The notes under the pieces: generated by a model
What the model saw: the letters and a program-made list of their open reading frames with translations, nothing else
What the model was told of the DNA's origin: nothing
The model's database searches: none
Position numbers and translations under genes: made by a program
Shown here: one piece after another, positions 3,573-64,000 of the stretch
Numbering within the stretch: position 1 is the first letter of the stretch
How the letters are laid out: each line of letters opens with the position of its first letter
NCBI GenBank assembly: GCA_934085585.1
Contig: CAKOHI010000004.1
Location: 16,064 to 80,063 of the forward strand
Source of the DNA: an uncultured Bacilli bacterium
GTDB lineage: Bacteria; Bacillota_I; Bacilli_A; RF39; UBA660
Reading direction: 5' to 3'
Length of the DNA: 64,000 nucleotides

Positions 3573-4610
3573 ATGAAAGAAAAGTTAGAAAAAATAAGAG
3601 AGTTAGGTTTAGAAAAAATTGATGCTACTAAAACTATTCAAGAACTTGAAGATGTTAGAAAAGACTTAACGGGTAAGAAAAGTGAACTTGCCGAAGTTAT
3701 GAAAAACATGGGAAGTTTAGCACCTGAAGATAAAAAGAGTGTTGGCATGTTAACTACAGAAATAAAAAATGTATTTCAAGAAAAGTTGGCAAGTAAGGAA
3801 GAAGAAATTATTGCATCAATGAGTGTTTTAGATGAACCGATTGATTTAACAGTTCCAGGTAAACATGTTAGTGAAGGAGCATTACATCCAATTACACAAA
3901 TGCGTAATGATTTAAATGAAGCCTTTTTATCACTAGGATTTGAAGTTTATACTGAAGATGATATAAGTAGTGAAGAATATGCTTTTGATAATTTGAATTT
4001 TGCTAAAGATCATCCAGCTCGTCAATCTATGGATACTTATTGGATAGAAGGAACAGAAAATAAAGAAGGAGCTGAAAGACTTTGTTTAAAACCACATTTA
4101 ACTGGTGGTTCAGTAAGATATTTGTTAAATCATGGAGCTCCGGCGAGATTTGTATATCCTGGTAAAGTATTTAGAAATGAAACAACTGATGCAAGACATG
4201 AAAGAGCTTTCTATCAATATGAAGCTTTAATTGTTGATAAAGATATATCCTTTTCATCTGGTATGGTAATGATTCAAACTATTTTAGAAAAGGTTTTTGG
4301 AAGAAAAATAAATACAAGAATGAGAGAAGGTTTCTTCCCATTTACAGAACCTGGTTATGAAATTGATATGGAATGTCTTGTTTGTGGCGGAAAAGGTTGT
4401 AAAGTATGTAATCATAATGGTTGGATAGAAGTTATGCCTGGTGGAGTAATTCATCCGAATGTACTTAAATCTGCAAAGCTTGATCCAGATGAATGGACAG
4501 GATTTTATATTAATATTGGTTTAGATAGATTAGTAATGATGCGTTATGGAGTAGATGATGTAAGACTTTTCCATAGTAGTGATTTACGTTTCTTAAAACA
4601 ATTTAAATAA
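3573..4610 (+). CDS. pheS: Phenylalanine--tRNA ligase alpha subunit
   Basis: Class II aaRS motifs (HPARQSMDTYW, FRNE, GxGxDR: GLDRLVMM). The ATG at 3573 follows AAGGAAGGA. The upstream part of ORF 3495-4610 reads through the T-box terminator and is not coding. Confidence 0.95.
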   Translation: MKEKLEKIRELGLEKIDATKTIQELEDVRKDLTGKKSELAEVMKNMGSLAPEDKKSVGMLTTEIKNVFQEKLASKEEEIIASMSVLDEPIDLTVPGKHVSEGALHPITQMRNDLNEAFLSLGFEVYTEDDISSEEYAFDNLNFAKDHPARQSMDTYWIEGTENKEGAERLCLKPHLTGGSVRYLLNHGAPARFVYPGKVFRNETTDARHERAFYQYEALIVDKDISFSSGMVMIQTILEKVFGRKINTRMREGFFPFTEPGYEIDMECLVCGGKGCKVCNHNGWIEVMPGGVIHPNVLKSAKLDPDEWTGFYINIGLDRLVMMRYGVDDVRLFHSSDLRFLKQFK

Positions 4611-4620
4611 GGAGGATAAA

Positions 4621-7044
4621 ATGAGAGTATCATTAAATTTAGTAAAAAAATATATAGATTTACCAGATAATTTAACAAATGAACAAATAGCTTATGATTT
4701 AACACTTCGTACTGTTGAGGTGGAAAGTGTTGAGGATACTGCTAAAAAGTTTCATGATATTATTGTAGGTAAAATAGTTGAAGTAAATAATCATCCAGAT
4801 GCTGATAAATTAAAAGTATGTATGGTTGATATTGGTGAAGATAAAAATGTTCAAATTGTATGTGGGGGATCTAACCTTTATAAAGATGAATTAGTTGTTG
4901 TTTGTAAACCTGGAGCTGAAGTTATTTGGCATGGTATCGGAGATCCAGTAGTTATTAAAGAAACTAAAATGCGTGGGGTATCATCTTATGGTATGATTTG
5001 TGCATCTGAAGAAGTTTTTTTAAGTGATTTCTTTCCCGCTAAAGATGAAACTGAGATAATTGATTTAAGTGGAATAGATTGTAAACCTGGAGATAATATT
5101 GCTGATGTTGTTGATATGAATGATACAGTATTAGAAATAGATAATAAGTCATTATCAAATAGACCAGATTTATGGGGACATTATGGAATTGCTCGTGAAC
5201 TTTCTGCAATATATGATGTTCCATTAAAGCCACAAGAAGTTTTTGAATTAGATAAAAATTTACCAAAATATGATGTAGAAATCAAAGAACCATCAAAATG
5301 CTATAGATATGCAGCAGTTGAAATTGATGGAATTTATGAAAAACAATCACCAATGTGGATGCAATCTTTACTTGTAAAATGTGGTGGAAGACCTATTAAT
5401 GCTATCGTAGATATTACAAATTATGTTATGTTTGCGGTAGGACAACCTCTTCATGCTTTTGATAAAACTCATGTAAGTGGTGATAAGATTGTTGTTAGAA
5501 ATGCTAAAGAAGGTGAAGAATTATTATTACTTGACCATAATTCTATTAAGCTAACTACAGATGATTTAGTTGTATGTGACACTGAAGATGCTATGGCTCT
5601 AGCAGGTATTCGTGGAGGTAGCAAAGACTCTATATTACCTGAAACTAAAGGTATAGTTTTAGAAGTTGCAAACTTTCCAGCATCATCAATTAGAAAAACT
5701 GGTAAAAGATTTGCGGAAAAAACTGATGCTTCAATTAGATATGAAAAAGGAATGGATACACAAAGAGTTGATGAAGGGTTAAATTTATCTTTATCTTTAA
5801 TTAAAGAAATATTTCCAGAAAGCAAAATTGTTAAATTTGCAGATGTTTATCCAGTTGAAACTAAAAAAGAAGAAATAGATGTAAGTGAGAATTTCTTAAC
5901 AACTAGATTAGGTAAGAAAATAGATGATGTTGTTATTAAAAGAATTCTTACTGCTTTAGGTTATGAAGTTACTTTAAATGATGGTGTATATCATGTAGTT
6001 GTACCTACATTTAGATCTACGGGTGATGTGTCTTTAAAAGATGATGTAATGGGAGATATTGCCAGAATATTAAGTTTTGATTCATTTGAAGCTAAACCTA
6101 TTGATATAACAATTGAACACTCTATTAATCAAAGAAAAGTTATACTAGAAAGAAGAATAATGGAATATCTCGCAAATAGATGTGGATTTTATGAAATATT
6201 TACATATCCTTGGATAGATGAAAAATATATTAATGCAGCTGGTATTTCTACGGAAGATACAATTAAACTTGCAACACCACCAGCACCTGAACTTGCAAAT
6301 TTAAGAACTTCCCTAATCCCTGGATTACTTGAAGCAACTGTTAAAAATTTAAGATATTATGAAAGTTTTAAAATATTTGAATGCGCACAAGTATTTAAAA
6401 AGGGTGAATATAGGCCATCTAGTAATGATGAGGTATTACCAGTTCAAAATAAATATTTAGCTGGTGCTATAGTTGGTAAAAATGCTAAAGAAATATTCTT
6501 TGAATTAAAAGGTGTATTAGAAGAAATGTCTAGATATACCCACATGGAAGTATTAAAACTAGAATCTGGAGATAAACCAAGTTGGGCAGATGTTAATGCA
6601 CACTTAAATATAACATTAAATGGTAATGTAATTGGAACTTTAGGATTGCTATCAATTAAAGCTATGAATGATGTAAAAATTAAAAGAACTAACGTAGCTA
6701 TATTTGAAATAAATATGGAAGAATTAATTCCATTTGCTTCTAGAGATAATAAATTTGATCATTTACCTGAACTTCCTTTAGTTGAAAAAGACTTGTCAAT
6801 AATTGTTGATGAATCTGTAAGTTGGGCAATAATTGAACAAACTGTTAAAGGAAAAGTTAAAGAAGTTGAATTTGTGGATGTATATCGTGGAAATCAAATT
6901 CCTGAAGGTAAAAAGTCTGTTACATTTAAGGTTCGTATGATTAATGAAGGTAGTACAATGACTATGGAAGAAATAAATGACAAAATGGATAGAATACTTT
7001 CTTCATTAAGTAAAAGATGCGGAGCTAAATTAAGAGAAGAGTAG
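4621..7044 (+). CDS. pheT: Phenylalanine--tRNA ligase beta subunit
   Basis: 807 aa. N-terminal tRNA-binding (EMAP-like) domain HPDADKLKVCMVDIG, B3/4 and B5 regions, and a C-terminal FDX-ACB-like domain. It follows pheS by 10 nt with a GGAGGA RBS. Confidence 0.95.
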   Translation: MRVSLNLVKKYIDLPDNLTNEQIAYDLTLRTVEVESVEDTAKKFHDIIVGKIVEVNNHPDADKLKVCMVDIGEDKNVQIVCGGSNLYKDELVVVCKPGAEVIWHGIGDPVVIKETKMRGVSSYGMICASEEVFLSDFFPAKDETEIIDLSGIDCKPGDNIADVVDMNDTVLEIDNKSLSNRPDLWGHYGIARELSAIYDVPLKPQEVFELDKNLPKYDVEIKEPSKCYRYAAVEIDGIYEKQSPMWMQSLLVKCGGRPINAIVDITNYVMFAVGQPLHAFDKTHVSGDKIVVRNAKEGEELLLLDHNSIKLTTDDLVVCDTEDAMALAGIRGGSKDSILPETKGIVLEVANFPASSIRKTGKRFAEKTDASIRYEKGMDTQRVDEGLNLSLSLIKEIFPESKIVKFADVYPVETKKEEIDVSENFLTTRLGKKIDDVVIKRILTALGYEVTLNDGVYHVVVPTFRSTGDVSLKDDVMGDIARILSFDSFEAKPIDITIEHSINQRKVILERRIMEYLANRCGFYEIFTYPWIDEKYINAAGISTEDTIKLATPPAPELANLRTSLIPGLLEATVKNLRYYESFKIFECAQVFKKGEYRPSSNDEVLPVQNKYLAGAIVGKNAKEIFFELKGVLEEMSRYTHMEVLKLESGDKPSWADVNAHLNITLNGNVIGTLGLLSIKAMNDVKIKRTNVAIFEINMEELIPFASRDNKFDHLPELPLVEKDLSIIVDESVSWAIIEQTVKGKVKEVEFVDVYRGNQIPEGKKSVTFKVRMINEGSTMTMEEINDKMDRILSSLSKRCGAKLREE

Positions 7045-38727: not shown

Positions 38728-40010
38728 TGGAAGAATTAGTTTTAAAAGGCTTAAATGAAAAGATATATGTGTATAATACTAAATGTGGACTTCCAATATA
38801 TATGTGGGTAAATGAAAAAGTAAGTAGTATGTATGCTTCTTTATCTGTAAAGTATGGTTCAATTCATACAAAATTTAAAATAGGGAAAAAGACTTATGAA
38901 GTACCTGATGGTATTGCTCATTTTTTGGAACATATAAAATTTAATATTGATGAGGAAACTACAGCTCATGATGAATTTTATAAATTAGGGGGAGATGCAA
39001 ATGCTTTTACAACTTTTGATTATACTAGTTATATTGTGTTTGCTACTAAAAATAAAAAAGAAAATTTAGAAGAATTACTTAATTTTGTTTATAATCCATT
39101 TTTTACTAAAAAAAGTGTAGCTAAAGAAAAAGGGATTATTGTTGAAGAAGCTAATATGGGACTTGATGATCCTTATAGTATAGTGTTTTTTCATACACTA
39201 TCAAATGTGTTACAAAAATCAAAATATAGAAATACTATAACAGGGACGCCAGAAGATGTTAATAGCATAAATCTAGAAGATGTTAAATTAGTTTATGATG
39301 CTTTTTATCATCCTGAAAATATGTTTTTAACTATAACTGGTAATTTTAATCCTTATGAAATGGCAAGTGTTGTTGAAGATAATTTATCTAAAAAAAGTTT
39401 CGGAAAGTATTTGCAACCAATAGTTATAAAAGAATCTGAACCTAAAAAAGTATTAGAAAAATATAAAGAAGAAAGGATTAATTTAACTTATCCAAGAGTG
39501 AAAATTTGTTGTAAAATGGATATGAATAAATTTAAGGACTATTCTATATTAGAACTAAAAATTCTTTCTAATTTAATTTTTAATATAAATTTTGGCGCTA
39601 CTTCTGATTTTAGAGATGAACTAATGGAAAAAGGACTTATTCAAGGAATGAGTGTTGCAACAGATATTTATGATGATACTTTTGTTATTTCAATTAGTGT
39701 AACAACCAATTTTAAAGATGAAGTTATAAAAAGAATTAAAGATAAATTAAATGATTTACAAATTAGTGATATTGATTTTAAAAGAAAAAAGAATGCTACG
39801 ATAGCAACTTTAATATTAGATTATGAAGATGTAGAAAATGTTAGTTATAGAATTCAAGATGATGTTTTAAATAATGGGGGTATTGTAACTAATCTAAAAG
39901 AAATATTAGAAGATGAGACTCTTGAAGATTTAGAAGAATTAATTAATTTATATGATTTAGATAATTTGCAAATTAGTGTATTTTTACCAAAAGAAAACCA
40001 AAAGGATTAA
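38727..40010 (+). CDS. M16-family zinc peptidase (insulinase-like), catalytic subunit
   Basis: GIAHFLEHIKF (HxxEH) plus a downstream E (VEEANMG). Confidence 0.8.
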   Translation: MEELVLKGLNEKIYVYNTKCGLPIYMWVNEKVSSMYASLSVKYGSIHTKFKIGKKTYEVPDGIAHFLEHIKFNIDEETTAHDEFYKLGGDANAFTTFDYTSYIVFATKNKKENLEELLNFVYNPFFTKKSVAKEKGIIVEEANMGLDDPYSIVFFHTLSNVLQKSKYRNTITGTPEDVNSINLEDVKLVYDAFYHPENMFLTITGNFNPYEMASVVEDNLSKKSFGKYLQPIVIKESEPKKVLEKYKEERINLTYPRVKICCKMDMNKFKDYSILELKILSNLIFNINFGATSDFRDELMEKGLIQGMSVATDIYDDTFVISISVTTNFKDEVIKRIKDKLNDLQISDIDFKRKKNATIATLILDYEDVENVSYRIQDDVLNNGGIVTNLKEILEDETLEDLEELINLYDLDNLQISVFLPKENQKD

Positions 40011-40033: not shown

Positions 40034-40636
40034 TTATCTGTTGTAGAATTCAACGATAAGTTGTTCATTAATTTCTGGATTAAGTTCACTTCTTTCTGGA
40101 AGTCTAACAAATTTACCAGTTAATTTCTTTTCATCCATTTCTAGGAATGCTGGAACAGTTCTCTTTTGTTCAATTGCATCAAGGATTGCTGGATGGTTCA
40201 TTGAGTTTTCTTTAACTGAAATGATATCTCCGACTTTAGTAGTGTATGAAGGAATATCAACCTTTTTACCATTTACTAAAATGTGTCCATGATTTACAAT
40301 TTGACGAGCGCTTCTTCTAGTTCTAGCCATACCAAGACGATAAACCATATTATCAAGTCTTGATTCTAGTAGGATAAGTAAGTTTTCCCCAGCAATACCA
40401 TGCATCTTTGAAGCTTTGTCAAATACTTTGTGGAATTGTTTTTCATTAAGTCCATAAAGAATTCTTACTTTTTGTTTTTCTTGCATTTGGATTCCATATT
40501 CACTTAATTTACGACGACGGTCTTGTCCGTGTTGTCCTGGTGCATATGGTCTTTTTGCTAATTCTTTTCCGTTTTCAAGAGTAGAAAAACCAAGTCTTCT
40601 AGATTTTTTATAAGCTGGTCCTGTATATCTTGCCAT
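40034..40636 (-). CDS. rpsD: 30S ribosomal protein S4
   Basis: [16 protein letters not shown]... with an S4 RNA-binding domain. The ATG at 40636 is preceded by GGAG. Confidence 0.95.
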
Positions 40637-40826
40637 AAAATCTCCTTTCATTTTATTTGCAAAATATTTAACTTCGTTATATCTAATAAATAGGGAGTTT
40701 AAATAATTTTACTAGGGCAGTCCTAGTTACTTTGTTCCATATAGGTTTAAACACATTATTTATAGGTATAACCCTGCCTAAATAACTTGCAAGTGTATTA
40801 TATAATAAATGTATGCTTGTTGTCAA
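40637..40826 (-). promoter_or_regulatory. rpsD promoter and long structured 5' leader
   Basis: On the minus strand: TTGACA (40826-40821), 18-nt spacer, TATAAT (40802-40797). About 150 nt of leader contain hairpins such as ACTAGG/CCTAGT (about 40711-40727). S4 autoregulation through its leader is known in Bacillus. Confidence 0.5.
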
Positions 40827-40972
40827 ATAAAAATTGTAATTGTTTATTTATTTTATTATGACAAATAAAAACATCTAGGTTAATTTAACTTATATATTTG
40901 GACTAAAAAATTTTAAAGCAAATGCTATAATTTGTTGCTTTTTATAGACTCGTATGTTAAAATAATTTTTAT

Positions 40973-41191
40973 GGAATATCCAGTTGATTGGATGCTACCT
41001 TCTACAATATAAATAAGAGGTTTGATTCTATGACTAAAGATGGAATTATCATCGGGTTATGGTTGATCATTATTCTTCTCATTTTGGTTTTACTGCTAAA
41101 ATAGAAGTAAATAAAAACGCATCTAGATCAACCGTGTTGATTTAGATGCCCACAACTTTGGTAGCATCCAACATGCAAAATTGGATGTTCC
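40973..41191 (+). repeat. Long-range inverted repeat bracketing a 24-codon ORF
   Basis: TTGGATGCTACC (40988-40999) is perfectly complementary to GGTAGCATCCAA (41160-41171). GGAATATCCA (40973-40982) pairs with TGGATGTTCC (41182-41191) with one G-U. Confidence 0.85.
41030..41104 (+). CDS. 24-aa hydrophobic peptide (candidate type I toxin)
   Basis: Not in the ORF track. AAGAGG lies 9 nt upstream of the ATG. My translation is MTKDGIIIGLWLIIILLILVLLLK. The candidate promoter is TTGCTT (40935-40940), 17 nt, TGtTAAAAT (-10 at 40958-40963). The 3' hairpin CATCCAA/TTGGATG (41165-41187) is followed by a T-run. Confidence 0.5.
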   Translation: MTKDGIIIGLWLIIILLILVLLLK

Positions 41192-41254
41192 ATTTTTAAT
41201 TTATGCAAATTGTTTTGCTATATACATATTATCATAAAAGTGGCTTTTTGTCAA
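41112..41254 (-). ncRNA. Candidate antisense sRNA (antitoxin) convergent with the 24-aa ORF, including its promoter
   Basis: Minus-strand TTGACA (41254-41249), 17 nt, TAATAT (41231-41226), immediately after the def stop codon. About 100 nt downstream is a 14-bp hairpin (41149-41119, GCATCTAAATCAAC/GTTGATCTAGATGC) followed by TTTTT on the minus strand. The transcript would be fully complementary to the 3' UTR of the peptide mRNA. Confidence 0.45.
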
Positions 41255-41257
41255 AGT

Positions 41258-41812
41258 CTAAATTTCTCGCATTTTATTTTTATCTTTATATGGATTTTTA
41301 GGATCTATTTTATCTACGAATAAAATTCCATCTAAATGATCTATTTCATGTTGGAATGCTACAGCTAAATCTTCACGAGCTCGCATTGTTTTTTTATTTC
41401 CTTCATAATCATAATATTCAATAGTTATTCTAGCATGTCTTGGAACTATGCCTTCAACTTCACGATTAACACTTAAACATCCTTCGCCTTCACCAACATA
41501 AATTAACTCTTCACTTTGACTAATAATTTTAGGATTAATTATTATATATTCTTCAAAGGTTCCTTTTTCTTCTAGTTCATTGGCTATAACAAACATTCTT
41601 TTTAAATGCCCTAGTTGGACAAAAGCCATTCCCATTCCAGCTCTTAAATCGTATTTTTCAGCAATTTTTTCGTCTTGGCTCATTTCTAAATATTTAATTG
41701 TATCTTCAGCAAGTTTGCGATCTTCTTTACTTACTGGAAATGTAACATCTTTACTTTTTTGATGTAATATTTTATTTTTTTCATCTAATATTGTAATGTT
41801 TGGTAATTTCAT
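41258..41812 (-). CDS. def: Peptide deformylase
   Basis: GMGMAFVQLG, EGCLS and HEIDHLDG motifs. The ATG at 41812 is preceded by AGGTGA. Confidence 0.93.
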   Translation of the reverse strand: MKLPNITILDEKNKILHQKSKDVTFPVSKEDRKLAEDTIKYLEMSQDEKIAEKYDLRAGMGMAFVQLGHLKRMFVIANELEEKGTFEEYIIINPKIISQSEELIYVGEGEGCLSVNREVEGIVPRHARITIEYYDYEGNKKTMRAREDLAVAFQHEIDHLDGILFVDKIDPKNPYKDKNKMREI

Positions 41813-41886
41813 ATATACTTCACCTGGAACATAGTATATCAAATTTTTTTTGAAAATGCAATTTTCATTGTAATTGCTAGGCTTTT

Positions 41887-42393
41887 ATGGTAATATTTGC
41901 TTGGGAGATGATTTTCTTGGATATTCAAAAAAGACTTAAAATGATATTAGATAAATTTGCAGAATGTAGTAACGAGTTGGGTATTATTGATATTACCAAA
42001 TTTGCAAGATCATTTGGATTTATTGTTAATGAGAGTAGTGATTTACCAAATGATATAAATGGTAAAATTAGTTCAGCTAATAATAATAAAAAAATAATTT
42101 TAAATATTTACTTTAGTAAAGAACAAAAAAGATATACGATTGCATATTTGATTTCTTCATATTTAATATTTTATAATAATGAAATTTTTTTAGGTAGTCA
42201 TGTTTTAGATAATGAAATTGATGCTGTTGCATCTTTTGCAAGAATATTACTTGTGCCTGATAATAAATTAAAGGCTTGTAATACAAGAGATTGCGAGGCT
42301 TTAGCATCTTATTTTTCTGTACCTATAGAAATAATTAAATTAAGATTAAAAGAAGTGTTTAAACCAAATATATTACAAAGAAAAAAGGACTAG
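41887..42393 (+). CDS. Hypothetical protein, possibly a degenerate ImmA/IrrE-like (DUF955) domain lacking HExxH
   Basis: KIILNIYFSKEQKRYTIAYLISSYLIFYN ... ARILLVPDNKL is laid out like the ImmA/IrrE core (..vn..l...qrFtiaHELgHyll...lLmP), but the His/Glu ligands are replaced. The start codon is uncertain. Confidence 0.35.
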   Translation: MVIFAWEMIFLDIQKRLKMILDKFAECSNELGIIDITKFARSFGFIVNESSDLPNDINGKISSANNNKKIILNIYFSKEQKRYTIAYLISSYLIFYNNEIFLGSHVLDNEIDAVASFARILLVPDNKLKACNTRDCEALASYFSVPIEIIKLRLKEVFKPNILQRKKD

Positions 42394-42419: not shown

Positions 42420-42605
42420 TTAATTATTGTTATTATTCCAGCTCCAGCCAGCACCTAAAATGATTACTAAAAGAATGAATAATACAATCCAAATAGCAGC
42501 ACCTATGCCATAACCACTAGTGTATCCAGCATATGTAGGAGCTCCACAAGCACCTTGAGCGCCGTATCCTCCGCCATAATAGCCAGTATTTCCATAATAA
42601 TACAT
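42420..42605 (-). CDS. YjcZ-like small sporulation membrane protein (G/Y-rich)
   Basis: 61 aa. A G/Y-rich N-terminus is followed by AAIWIVLFILLVIILGAG, the TIGR01732/YjcZ-type core (from memory). RBS AGGAGG. Confidence 0.65.
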   Translation of the reverse strand: MYYYGNTGYYGGGYGAQGACGAPTYAGYTSGYGIGAAIWIVLFILLVIILGAGWSWNNNNN

Positions 42606-62044: not shown

Positions 62045-63130
62045 ATGAATAAAAAGAAATTAATTATTATTGTTTGTAGCATAGTTTTGGTTGCAGGTTT
62101 AGGATTTGGAATTTATAAAGTAACTAAATCAAATGATACAAATAATAATGGGGGAGTTATTAAAACAGATAAGGGTAATGTTAAAATAGTTAAAAATGCT
62201 GCTAGTCAAATTGTTTTGGAAGACTATAGTGATGCTAATTTTAATATGAAAATACCTAAAGGGTGGAAAGTTCAAACACTTGGAGACTATATTCATTTTA
62301 CAATTAAGGTTTATAATCCTGAAAATCCAACATATCAATTTTTCTTTAATTTAAAAAGTGAAGGATATAATAAATCTGAAGAAGCAAAAAGATGGCAACA
62401 AAAGTTTTATCCGAATGATATGTTTGCTAAAACTGCAGTTATAGCTACGAAGGATACTGAAGGATTTTATAAAATATTTAATGAAATGGGGCCTTTAAAT
62501 AATAATGCAACATTTACGTTTCCTATTTTGACTGATTTTACGGTTATTGAAAATTTAGGAAAGAGTTCGCTTGGTGGTGATGTTTTACGGGCATCATTTA
62601 AAGATGAAGCTGGTAAAGATGCTGAAGGATTGTTTACAGCTTATGTTTATGATGCAGGACCATATTATGTTTCAGAAGACTTCATGTCAACAAAACAAAT
62701 AGATATTTACTTTTTAAGTGTTTATGATGCTATTTTTGTAACTACTCCGAAAGATGAATTTGTTGATTGGGAAGAAACATTAAATAAAGTTTCAGCATCA
62801 TTAGAATTTACTGATGCGTTTATGAATGGTTTTAATCAAGAACAAGATGCAGTTATGAAAACATTTCAAAATGTAAGAAGTATTTGTAATCAAATTTCTG
62901 ATGGTATTATGGATTCTTGGGAAAAAAGAAGTACAACATATGATATAATGAGTCAAAAACAAAGTGATGCTACACTTGGATATGAAAGAGTTTATGATAC
63001 AGAAACTAATGAAATTTACAAAGCTTATAATGGATTTACAGATGATTATGATGGAGAAAGATATAAGTCTATAAGTGATGATATGTATACGAAGAAAACA
63101 GATGGCTATATCGAAAAAATAGGTGAATAA
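62045..63130 (+). CDS. Hypothetical exported/membrane-anchored protein
   Basis: 361 aa with an N-terminal signal anchor KKKLIIIVCSIVLVAGLGFGIY and no recognised motif. RBS GGAG. It is divergent from the HTH gene. Confidence 0.5.
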   Translation: MNKKKLIIIVCSIVLVAGLGFGIYKVTKSNDTNNNGGVIKTDKGNVKIVKNAASQIVLEDYSDANFNMKIPKGWKVQTLGDYIHFTIKVYNPENPTYQFFFNLKSEGYNKSEEAKRWQQKFYPNDMFAKTAVIATKDTEGFYKIFNEMGPLNNNATFTFPILTDFTVIENLGKSSLGGDVLRASFKDEAGKDAEGLFTAYVYDAGPYYVSEDFMSTKQIDIYFLSVYDAIFVTTPKDEFVDWEETLNKVSASLEFTDAFMNGFNQEQDAVMKTFQNVRSICNQISDGIMDSWEKRSTTYDIMSQKQSDATLGYERVYDTETNEIYKAYNGFTDDYDGERYKSISDDMYTKKTDGYIEKIGE

Positions 63131-64000
63131 TGAAAGATAAAAAGACATGGATAATAGTAGGTTGTTTAGTTTTAGTAGTATTAGTTGTGGCAATAATTTT
63201 ATTTAATAAAAAAGATAGTGAAACTGATGATAAAAAAGATGATAAAGATGTAACGTCATTAGTTTTAGAAACTGCTAAAAATAGTAATAAAAATGCTAGT
63301 GATTATAAAAAGTTTTTAGGGGGAGAAGTATTAAGTGAAAGCACTTATTTTAATGAATATACTTTTATAAGTAATAATAAGACTTATGTTTTTGATCCTC
63401 AAAAGTTGGAAAACGGAGAGTTTAGTTATAGAAAAGTTTTAGATATTCCGGAAGATTTAAAAATAGTTAATATAGGAATACCTGTGGGAGCAGATATTTG
63501 TTTTATAACTAGTGATGATGTTTATTATAGAATTGAAGATACTAATATAGATAATAAAGTAGAAGATAGTTATAATATGTTTGCTAATGCAAAATATGAA
63601 TTACAAAAGTTTTATGACTCATATAGTAAAGAAACGTATGGAGAAAAATTAGATTATGATTTAATATTTAATTTACATATGGTTAAAGATAATATAATTT
63701 ATAAATTAACTATTCCATTTGAAAGTTTTTATGATAAGAAATTTTATCCATTTACTAAAACCAAAGTTGAAGGAAATTATGAAGGGGAAAAAATATTAAA
63801 TGTATATAATGATAGAATAATAAGAACTGATAAGGCTTTTTATGAGATTGTAGATTATTATAAAGATGGAGAAAGAACTACAACAACATTGAAAATGAAA
63901 ATGCTAACAAAATATTATGATGAAGTATTAACATTTACATATAAGTATGTGGTGCTTAAAGATTATACTTTAATACCTATTAGTGATACATTAGTAAATC
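63130..64000 (+). CDS. Hypothetical exported/membrane-anchored protein (3' end outside window)
   Basis: Not in the ORF track because it stays open to the window end. The ATG overlaps the previous stop (TAATG). My translation starts MKDKKTWIIVGCLVLVVLVVAIILFNKKDSETDDKKDDKD..., and I found no stop through 64000 in this frame. Confidence 0.55.
   Translation, partial: MKDKKTWIIVGCLVLVVLVVAIILFNKKDSETDDKKDDKDVTSLVLETAKNSNKNASDYKKFLGGEVLSESTYFNEYTFISNNKTYVFDPQKLENGEFSYRKVLDIPEDLKIVNIGIPVGADICFITSDDVYYRIEDTNIDNKVEDSYNMFANAKYELQKFYDSYSKETYGEKLDYDLIFNLHMVKDNIIYKLTIPFESFYDKKFYPFTKTKVEGNYEGEKILNVYNDRIIRTDKAFYEIVDYYKDGERTTTTLKMKMLTKYYDEVLTFTYKYVVLKDYTLIPISDTLVN

Follow-up and report, generated by a model that had tools for sequence, protein, structure and literature searches.

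The window analysed here, a 64,000-nucleotide (64-kb) stretch of DNA from an uncultured Bacilli bacterium, carries in the spacer between rpsD and def a compact element (positions 40923-41254) that is probably a functional or recently functional type I toxin-antitoxin (TA) module, and that would represent a new family of a known kind. Both flanking genes lie on the minus strand, rpsD at 40034-40651, with a product matching Pfam Ribosomal_S4 and S4, and def at 41258-41842, with a product matching Pep_deformylase; the spacer between them measures 606 nt. A new type I pair had been proposed at this place in a preliminary description of the same DNA. The proposal gains in silico support from coding constraint on a small open reading frame (ORF), a 5'-3' clamp in the predicted mRNA, an antisense gene, the behaviour of the cassette as a multi-copy unit subject to insertion, deletion and decay, and the lack of a match to any known family. 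Sequence-level features by which type I systems are recognised are found, i.e. a small hydrophobic ORF with a Shine-Dalgarno (SD) sequence, coding character of that ORF, an antisense gene, and an mRNA fold that locks the message and sequesters the SD. Coordinates are those of the window throughout, and labels such as L001 and L002 denote the relative loci or genomes used for comparison. The cassette is small and self-contained, and the window appears to hold an intact copy with the following parts:

40923-40931, plus strand: extended -10-like element TGCTATAAT, a perfect extended -10 just upstream of the toxin -35, read from the sequence.
40935-40963, plus strand: toxin promoter, TTGCTT (40935-40940), 17-nt spacer, TGtTAAAAT (40955-40963).
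40970-41200, plus strand: predicted toxin mRNA of ~230 nt, its ends placed from promoter and terminator.
40971-40999, plus strand: 5' arm of the clamp, with helix a at 40971-40985 and helix c at 40988-40999.
40996-41002, plus strand: anti-SD ACCUUCU, directly 3' of the clamp 5' arm.
41015-41020, plus strand: SD AAGAGG, 9 nt ahead of the ATG.
41030-41104 (stop codon included), plus strand: 24-codon ORF encoding MTKDGIIIGLWLIIILLILVLLLK, a putative membrane toxin.
41108-41149, minus strand: intrinsic terminator of the antisense RNA, hairpin 41149-41119 and U-run 41118-41108 (GUUUUUAUUU).
41160-41193, plus strand: 3' arm of the clamp, with helix c' at 41160-41171 and helix a' at 41179-41193.
41163-41197, plus strand: toxin mRNA terminator, the alternative local fold of the 3' arm, AGCAUCCAA/UUGGAUGUU then CCAUUUUU (parts also given as AGCATCCAA/TTGGATGTT then CCATTTTT).
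41108-41220, minus strand: predicted antisense (antitoxin) RNA of ~113 nt, its ends placed in the same manner as predictions.
41226-41254, minus strand: antisense promoter, TTGACA (41254-41249), 17 nt, TGaTAATAT (-10 hexamer 41231-41226).

The ORF and the AAGAGG motif ahead of it are present as first described, and the 24-residue product contains 18 consecutive hydrophobic residues. Comparison with the homologue in L115 is informative about its coding status. The two ORFs differ by 24% at the nucleotide level, yet start, stop, frame and length are retained; there are nine synonymous changes and six conservative replacements (I/M, I/L, L/I, L/V, K/R), giving synonymous and non-synonymous divergences (pS and pN) of 0.53 and 0.11 with a ratio of 0.21 (Fisher p = 7e-4). 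Pairs of another peptide type, E, give pN/pS values of 0.08-0.3, with p down to 5e-6. These substitution patterns indicate that the ORF is a coding sequence under purifying selection. Related peptides of 22-32 residues occur at the same position in 53 of the 111 cassette copies collected, and in full-length copies the ORF lies at a fixed distance from the antisense motif and is preceded by GGAGG-like SDs. The peptides follow a common plan, M-x-x-K-(D/T/N), about 18 hydrophobic residues and then K, and were sorted into six types:

Type A (window): MTKDGIIIGLWLIIILLILVLLLK
Type B (L073): MSKKDFLIFFFQLLSSFYYYYYL
Type C: MNAKDTFILMQFCIIIYLLIIITLLLIIK
Type D: MKAKDNCIQFLLKIILLQLIVIIILLIK
Type E: MKNKTFILRVLDFICTILFLVILLIAIVKK
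Type F: MNIKDVVIVIMFSIIIILLTIIIVLVK

Intermediates from metagenomes, such as MLKKDFLVLGLWLIIILLILVLLLK and MFKKDFLILGLWIIIILLILTLMFK, connect types A to F, which therefore form one superfamily.

The predicted mRNA was folded in silico, as had been suggested in the preliminary description. The RNA 40970-41205 reaches a minimum free energy (MFE) of -80.9 kcal/mol, compared to -44.1 +/- 4.3 kcal/mol for dinucleotide shuffles (z = -8.7, with 0 of 200 shuffles as stable). The MFE structure includes both long-range helices (27 pairs) as well as a CCUU/AGAGG pairing by which the anti-SD would mask the SD, in agreement with the earlier expectation. Helix c is the perfect 12-bp helix already recognised (40988-40999 with 41160-41171). 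The second helix, thought to have 10 bp and one G-U pair, turned out to be longer: helix a has 15 bp with two G-U pairs (40971-40985 with 41179-41193). When folded alone, the 5' arm gives a small local hairpin (AUCCA/UGGAU, -6.2 kcal/mol), and the 3' arm gives the terminator hairpin that had been put forward as its alternative structure (-13.0 kcal/mol), the position of which is conserved in all copies aligned. With -39.5 kcal/mol, the finished clamp gains about 20 kcal/mol over the separate arm hairpins. For nascent window transcripts of 62-140 nt it is predicted that the anti-SD already pairs with the SD and that the 5' arm folds locally.

The same architecture is found throughout the family. 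In the alignment across types the 5' arm directly follows the predicted start, the anti-SD directly follows the arm, and the 3' arm doubles as terminator. All 39 of 39 distinct family mRNAs fold with 23-32 long-range 5'-3' pairs, and the first 17 tested gave z values of -5.5 to -10.7. The arms exist in three versions:

Group 1 (types A, C, D and F): TTGGATGCTACC / GGTAGCATCCAA
Type E: TTGAGTGTCTGCC / GGCAGACATTCAA
L073: TTGGGTGGAGCC / GGCTACACTCAA, with one pair broken

Placed in register, these versions display exchanges of G-C to A-U, A-U to G-C and U-A to A-U, G-U intermediates and two co-inserted pairs. Because MAFFT puts the one-pair difference in arm length between group 1 and type E out of register, so that the alignment columns are not homologous, covariation was judged from hand-registered pairs and from the energies of cognate and non-cognate arms; cognate 5' and 3' arms pair with about -38 kcal/mol, versus about -20 kcal/mol for the non-cognate combination of group 1 with type E. 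Within type E, TCTACC/GGTAGA alternates with TCTGCC/GGCAGA, which is compensatory. The anti-SD and SD also vary in sequence yet stay complementary (CCUUCU/AGGAGG, CCUCAC/GUGAGG), and family SDs are mostly paired, with a median unpaired probability of 0.16. As judged by these predicted structures, the 5'-3' clamp and the sequestration of the SD are conserved, with compensatory changes between subfamilies.

The most sceptical explanation of the locus is that the hairpins are only terminators on the def and rpsD sides, or a non-coding inverted repeat resembling a miniature inverted-repeat transposable element, and that the ORF arose by chance in AT-rich DNA. In this locus def is indeed terminated by the minus-strand hairpin, the def terminator of L001 is similar, hydrophobic small ORFs (sORFs) do arise by chance, and at the DNA level the arms are an inverted repeat. 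The explanation is already disfavoured by the alignment, the pN/pS ratios and the arm energies, and we consider it very improbable: the conserved G-U pairs in the arms would be mismatches in DNA, conservation continues outward beyond either arm, the ORF has the same frame, start, stop and length despite 24% divergence, at a pN/pS of 0.2, and the same cassette occurs in many unrelated contexts (tRNAs, other genes, tandem arrangements).

The plus-strand promoter noted earlier at 40935-40963 is present, and its -35 (TTGCTT) agrees with the consensus at only 3/6 positions, which explains why the consensus scanner did not list it. Its position is conserved across peptide types, the alignment giving TTGC(T/A)T-17-TGnTAtAcT. 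Many family copies have a TATAAT-like hexamer right next to the toxin -35 (ATGCTTATAATGCTTGC in types C and E), and the element at 40923-40931 in the window may be a second, upstream promoter that would give a 5'-extended toxin transcript.

The opposite strand carries the stronger of the two predicted signals. The antisense promoter TTGACA-17-TAATAT, reported previously to follow the def stop codon, fits the consensus at 10/12 positions and has the TG extension, and its -35 starts 3 nt past that stop codon. Exact TTGACA at 17-nt spacing is found in 40 of the 58 distinct family sequences collected, with TAATAT, TACGAT or TATTAT as -10 and TG ahead of it. The minus-strand RNA folds with -32.8 kcal/mol (z = -3.9). 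Its 14-bp terminator hairpin, followed by GUUUUUAUUU, is present as described, except that it contains one A-C mismatch. The terminator is conserved in all copies examined, including orphan antisense genes, and in type E it has a G-U pair on the minus strand where the plus strand would have a C-A mismatch, which indicates that the stem is selected on the minus strand. Antisense RNAs of the family are ~113-125 nt long and have a 5' stem-loop (GCAAA/UUUGC), a single-stranded stretch AUAAAUUAAAA, a second stem-loop and the terminator. In the window these correspond to stem-loop 1 (SL1) at 41218-41205, the single-stranded AUAAAUUAAAAAUGG, stem-loop 2 (SL2), which is the complement of the 3' arm, and the terminator. 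Across the family stem-loop 2 is the exact complement of the toxin 3' arm and carries a C-G to U-A exchange between groups.

Complementarity of the antisense RNA to the toxin 3' untranslated region (UTR), including the 3' arm, had been foreseen, and the predicted overlap amounts to ~93 nt; the ORF of the window is not reached. Over this overlap the duplex of antisense RNA and 3' UTR is worth -165 kcal/mol, against -39.5 kcal/mol for the clamp. The toxin 5' arm is itself a near copy of antisense stem-loop 2, with a shorter loop and with C-to-U and A-to-G transitions that convert Watson-Crick pairs into the G-U pairs of the clamp, both in group 1 and in type E. Since it is a near copy of stem-loop 2, both would compete for the 3' arm. 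The antisense terminator also serves def in the window, and def transcripts traverse the antisense gene before they reach it, so that the def 3' UTR carries the antitoxin sequence.

These features suggest a possible mode of action. The modest plus-strand promoter would yield an mRNA of ~230 nt encoding a 24-residue, single-helix membrane peptide. In the complete mRNA the 5' end would clamp the 3' end through the 15- and 12-bp helices, giving a compact, probably stable and poorly translated RNA. The near-consensus minus-strand promoter would produce an antisense RNA of ~113 nt that is fully complementary to the 3' UTR of the mRNA and includes the complement of the 3' arm. Antisense stem-loop 2 and the mRNA 5' arm would be rivals for the 3' arm, a contest that should end in favour of the perfect antisense duplex. 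Cleavage of this duplex by RNase III and decay of the mRNA would then be expected, as with RatA/txpA and SR4/bsrG; for some subfamilies a tighter SD sequestration is also predicted once the antisense RNA is bound. Loss of the antisense RNA would lead to synthesis of the peptide and to membrane damage. That both RNAs are transcribed, that the peptide is toxic and that RNase III acts on the duplex is what we infer from the sequences, and so is any biological role, candidates being the stabilisation of genomic regions, defence, or a purely selfish existence.

Judged by its def relatives, the window belongs to a clade of uncultured gut Bacilli with complete-looking contigs of ~1 Mb, the records of which are labelled variously as Bacilli, Tenericutes, 'Firmicutes bacterium CAG:460' or 'Candidatus Onthocola'. 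Among 80 related species genomes def adjoins rpsD in only 9. Among the closest relatives the cassette of ~340 nt is present between the two genes in the window, L002 and L003, which have a spacer of ~600 nt, and absent from L001 and L004, where the spacer is ~270 nt; Def of L001 is 99% identical to that of the window. Presence and absence at the same site among closest relatives identifies the cassette as an indel between sister species. In L001 (3553-3640) the def terminator resembles the antisense terminator of the cassette and a degenerate antisense -35 is kept, so that it looks like a decayed remnant. The unrelated def terminator of L004 makes that locus look like an empty site. A direct repeat of 16-18 nt, AAATAAAAAC(G)CATCTAG, flanks the toxin half of the window cassette with its two copies and corresponds to the left half of the L001 def terminator:

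40863-40878, strand not assigned: direct repeat AAATAAAAACATCTAG, a copy of 41109-41126 (AAATAAAAACGCATCTAG), read from the sequence.

The repeat may be a footprint of the gain of the cassette, or of the route to its loss.

Further copies, for which a search had been recommended, were found neither in the rest of the 64-kb window nor near def in 80 related genomes, but at least 111 family copies exist in metagenome-assembled genomes (MAGs) of related gut Bacilli and in gut metagenomes. L073, with a Def 70% identical to that of the window, has a homologous cassette beside tRNA genes with a different peptide (MSKKDFLIFFFQLLSSFYYYYYL). From the 5' region of the antisense RNA, common to the window and L073 cassettes, the scan motif TTAATTTATGCAAA-N4-8-TTGCTA was derived. 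In GTDB species genomes it found 53 loci, ~30 of which are true members by nhmmer, all in the same clade and with 1-4 per genome. Other motif matches, in the Bacillus cereus group, Pelagibacteraceae, Campylobacter and others, lie inside coding regions and were rejected as chance. The metagenome scan gave 77 members among the 120 matches listed, and the record names of many members point to human gut metagenomes. Of the 111 copies collected, 53 have a peptide ORF and 58 do not (8 of the latter are cut by contig ends). A scan of IMG/VR viral contigs with the motif returned 12 matches, none of them a family member, and the cassettes are not on recognisable prophages. Their contexts are varied: they lie beside tRNAs, after other genes and in tandem, as in L084 (970-2197), where three type E copies follow each other at ~457 nt and two of them have a ~19-nt insertion that enlarges the antisense terminator loop, and in L253 (235-924), where two different peptide types stand side by side.

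In about half of the collected copies the toxin half is lost or broken and the antisense gene is retained. At one orthologous locus, independent internal deletions are seen in L125, L096 and L119, and L088 and L105 are intact. The def-rpsD cassettes of L003, L182, L242 and L249 have the SD changed from AGGAGG to AGACGG and the codon for W11 from TGG to TGA, and TGA is not used as a sense codon in def or rpsD of the L003-lineage genomes; these are natural nulls of type A. In L168 both the peptide (MTKDGIIIWLWFIIILLILVLLLK) and the SD are intact. In L123 (locus 4180-5904) the toxin promoter is missing, the ORF has a +1 frameshift, and a 1.39-kb IS605-family tnpB element lies just after it, with the antisense gene untouched. 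This element (380 amino acids; Pfam OrfB_IS605, HTH_OrfB_IS605, Cas12f1-like TNB) splits the ORF from the antisense gene, and L108 has the same IS605 junction. Chromosomal type I toxins decay in a comparable way, with hok genes inactivated by insertion sequence (IS) elements and txpA and bsrG by suppressor mutations (PMC6733600), and the toxin-only asymmetry of decay found here is the pattern of these systems (hok, txpA, bsrG) (PMC6733600). The last ~1 kb of the window (62982-63999) is syntenic with the L125, L096 and L119 loci, which have an orphan antisense gene ~2.8 kb further on. As judged from this synteny, the source genome may hold another copy just past the window end.

The retention of antisense genes could also mean that the functional unit is the minus-strand small RNA (sRNA), a multi-copy regulatory family acting in trans, with the ORF and arms as secondary or decaying passengers. 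This would account for the 58 of 111 collected copies without a recognisable ORF that keep the sRNA promoter, stem-loops and terminator, and for the high conservation of the 5' single-stranded stretch and SL1, which lie outside the toxin overlap, although this conservation is partly owing to the search motif. We find it quite unlikely, considering that the ORFs are under purifying selection, that the 5' arm, located outside the sRNA, co-varies with the 3' arm, and that the toxin promoter and SD are conserved. Orphan sRNA genes are moreover expected in a type I TA family, because paralogous mRNAs share nearly identical 3' UTRs and can be cross-neutralised.

The same decay pattern bears on whether the peptide is a toxin at all. 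It could be a harmless small membrane protein, for example a regulator or a subunit of a membrane complex, the expression of which is tuned by a cis-antisense RNA, so that there would be no TA pair. Coding constraint shows that the peptide matters, not that it is toxic, and many small membrane proteins are no toxins (for a review see PMC10730256). Such a protein would, however, hardly be expected to have several divergent paralogues per ~1-Mb genome, tandem arrays, and presence or absence between sister species, or to have its gene knocked out repeatedly with the antisense half kept. Translation is predicted to be blocked in layers, by the anti-SD hairpin and the clamp, and the antisense promoter is much stronger than that of the peptide. 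Paralogy, decay, translation blocks and promoter strengths of this kind are what one usually sees with toxins and seldom with small housekeeping proteins, which makes a harmless role unlikely.

Several observations weigh against a type I TA module and should be considered together. By itself the window ORF is not above chance, as hydrophobic sORFs are common in this AT-rich genome: the 64-kb window has 13 ATG-initiated sORFs of 18-40 residues in which 75% or more of the residues are hydrophobic, and 3 of the 13 have an SD-like motif. The other two SD-bearing ones lie within larger genes, and one of them, at 38995-39069 on the plus strand, encodes a hydrophobic peptide of 24 residues (MQMLLQLLIILVILCLLLKIKKKI) out of frame within an M16 peptidase gene, an example of how such ORFs arise by chance. 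Both the mRNA fold statistics and the degree of conservation across other genomes exceed chance by far. The SD of the window (AAGAGG) is weaker than the AGGAGG of its closest relatives, and the mismatch in the minus-strand terminator is a further blemish of this copy. Read-through from def could provide the antisense sequence without a dedicated promoter. Since the toxin ORF is missing from about half of the copies, the antisense RNA may serve an independent function. The collection was based on an exact motif in the antisense 5' region, so that conservation of the motif is by construction and copies without it were missed. In silico blocking of the 3' region lowers SD accessibility in group 1 (from 0.40 to 0.31 in the window) and raises it in type E, so that no single translational effect of the antisense RNA is predicted across the family. 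Finally, the hosts are uncultured.

With the type I TA module as the preferred reading, a wider scheme can be put forward tentatively. In uncultured gut Bacilli with small genomes the cassettes might make up a modular, lineage-specific superfamily of type I TA systems, run by a three-way RNA competition in which the 5' arm, as a degenerate copy of antitoxin stem-loop 2, and stem-loop 2 itself both bind the 3' arm, and the mRNA switches between two states, one dormant and clamped onto itself, the other bound by the antitoxin and destined for degradation. The orphan antitoxins would in this scheme persist as 'immunity' genes against paralogous or incoming toxin cassettes with the same 3' UTR, which they would cross-neutralise. 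It is a possibility to be kept in mind, with the odds against it.

The family was found from raw sequence and is backed by comparative genomics, in an uncultured lineage that is abundant in the human gut. Several cassette copies are a notable load for genomes of ~1 Mb, and small genes and sRNAs of this kind are missed by current annotation pipelines in these MAGs. The more than 100 natural variants, which comprise at least six peptide types on two or three RNA chassis together with natural null alleles and orphan antitoxins, are a ready-made mutational series for studying the cooperation of clamp and antisense RNA, cross-protection by antitoxins and the decay of toxin genes.

Other features were observed around the cassette. 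The rpsD promoter is a perfect consensus, TTGACA-18-TATAAT, at 40826-40797 on the minus strand. It is followed by a leader of ~145 nt that is highly conserved among relatives (region 40652-40826, minus strand) and has a GC-rich hairpin at 40711-40727; it has no Rfam match and is probably an S4 autoregulatory leader. Beyond def, an ORF of 168 residues on the plus strand (41887-42393) has a borderline Peptidase_M78 / IrrE-like match of 21.9 bits, the cut-off being 22, and a Gly/Tyr-rich ORF of 61 residues on the minus strand (42420-42605) has a C-terminal hydrophobic helix (MYYYGNTGYYGGGYG...) and is without Pfam match.

Comparison with known systems places the cassette among the type I modules. 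At gathering thresholds, Rfam models detect only a tRNA in the whole window, and at E <= 10 the region 40600-41320 gives only noise (snoR104, ST7-AS2, psRNA6). The preliminary description had recognised no known toxin in the peptide sequence, and the six peptide types indeed give nothing meaningful with Pfam and NCBIfam at E <= 10, including no TxpA, BsrG or Fst match, and no match with the PADLOC defence models. In the literature on type I TA systems in RF39 and Tenericutes and on small proteins of the gut, no description of this family was found. Reports of type I systems, which are hard to predict, are so far confined to Proteobacteria, Firmicutes and Tenericutes (PMC12390103), and the 24 families of T1TAdb come from genomes already discussed in the literature (PMC8594479). 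The cassette shares with type I systems the SD/anti-SD pairing, the 5'-3' long-distance interaction and, for those of Gram-positives, the 3'-overlapping antisense RNA (PMC8594479, PMC6733600, PMC8167048).

In organisation the nearest systems are txpA/RatA and bsrG/SR4 (also bsrE/SR5 and yonT/SR6) of B. subtilis, which likewise have convergent, 3'-overlapping RNAs (PMC8594479). They also resemble the cassette in having a small single-helix membrane toxin and an antitoxin promoter stronger than that of the toxin, and their extended 3' duplex with subsequent RNase III cleavage is the action expected for the cassette. Binding of SR4 at the bsrG 3' end causes a structural change around the SD (PMC8167048, PMC8594479); for cassettes of group 1, too, the SD is predicted to become less accessible when the 3' region is blocked. 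There is no similarity of peptide or RNA sequence, the peptide has 24 residues instead of 38-59, and the cassette has a 27-bp 5'-3' clamp, the 3' arm of which is the antisense target. We know of no equivalent 5'-3' clamp in systems of the txpA/RatA or bsrG/SR4 type. With respect to the txpA/RatA and BsrG-E-H/SR4-5 family, the convergent 3'-overlap organisation is thus found and homology is not.

The locking of a full-length mRNA by a 5'-3' interaction that sequesters the SD is known from aapA/IsoA of Helicobacter pylori and hok/Sok of plasmid R1, which also occur in several chromosomal copies with a fold conserved by covariation, as the cassette does (PMC6733600, PMC5416894, PMC8167048). Its local hairpins could act as the co-transcriptional metastable structures of these systems, and the IS insertion in L123 has a parallel in the IS elements that inactivate hok homologues (PMC6733600). 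In hok and aapA, however, the 3' end carries the anti-SD, and 3' trimming precedes binding of the antisense RNA to the 5' UTR or translation start, whereas the anti-SD of the cassette is local, just 3' of the 5' arm, and its antisense RNA covers the 3' UTR and would compete with the 5' arm. The hosts also differ, Proteobacteria and Epsilonproteobacteria versus Bacilli. The 5'-3' interaction is therefore shared with Hok/Sok and AapA/IsoA, and an antisense RNA to the 5' region, a 3' anti-SD and sequence similarity are not.

Among Gram-positive systems, Fst/RNAII (par of pAD1) and SprA1/SprA1as have convergent transcripts with close or shared terminators, a small membrane peptide, and repeated sequence common to both RNAs, all of which recur in the cassette. 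In par, complementarity of the RNAs at the toxin 5' end is due to the shared repeats, and the RNAs interact outside the overlap (PMC8594479), whereas the 5' arm of the cassette mRNA resembles the antisense RNA and is not complementary to it. Neither the Fst toxin models nor the Rfam antitoxin models give a match, and the cassette peptide is without the charged C-terminal tail of the Fst type. The peptides of Ibs and ShoB of E. coli are, like that of the cassette, very short (18-26 residues) and almost purely hydrophobic, and Ibs/Sib and ShoB/OhsC occur in multiple chromosomal copies as well. They differ in that Sib spans the ibs ORF from end to end and OhsC is divergent without overlap (PMC8594479), and in their Gram-negative hosts, and no homology with the cassette was detected. 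As homology to the TxpA/BsrG, Fst and Hok/AapA families fails, the cassette is filed as a new family within type I TA. Its predicted features form a hybrid set: the clamp is targeted by the antisense RNA at its 3' arm, and its 5' arm is an antitoxin mimic.

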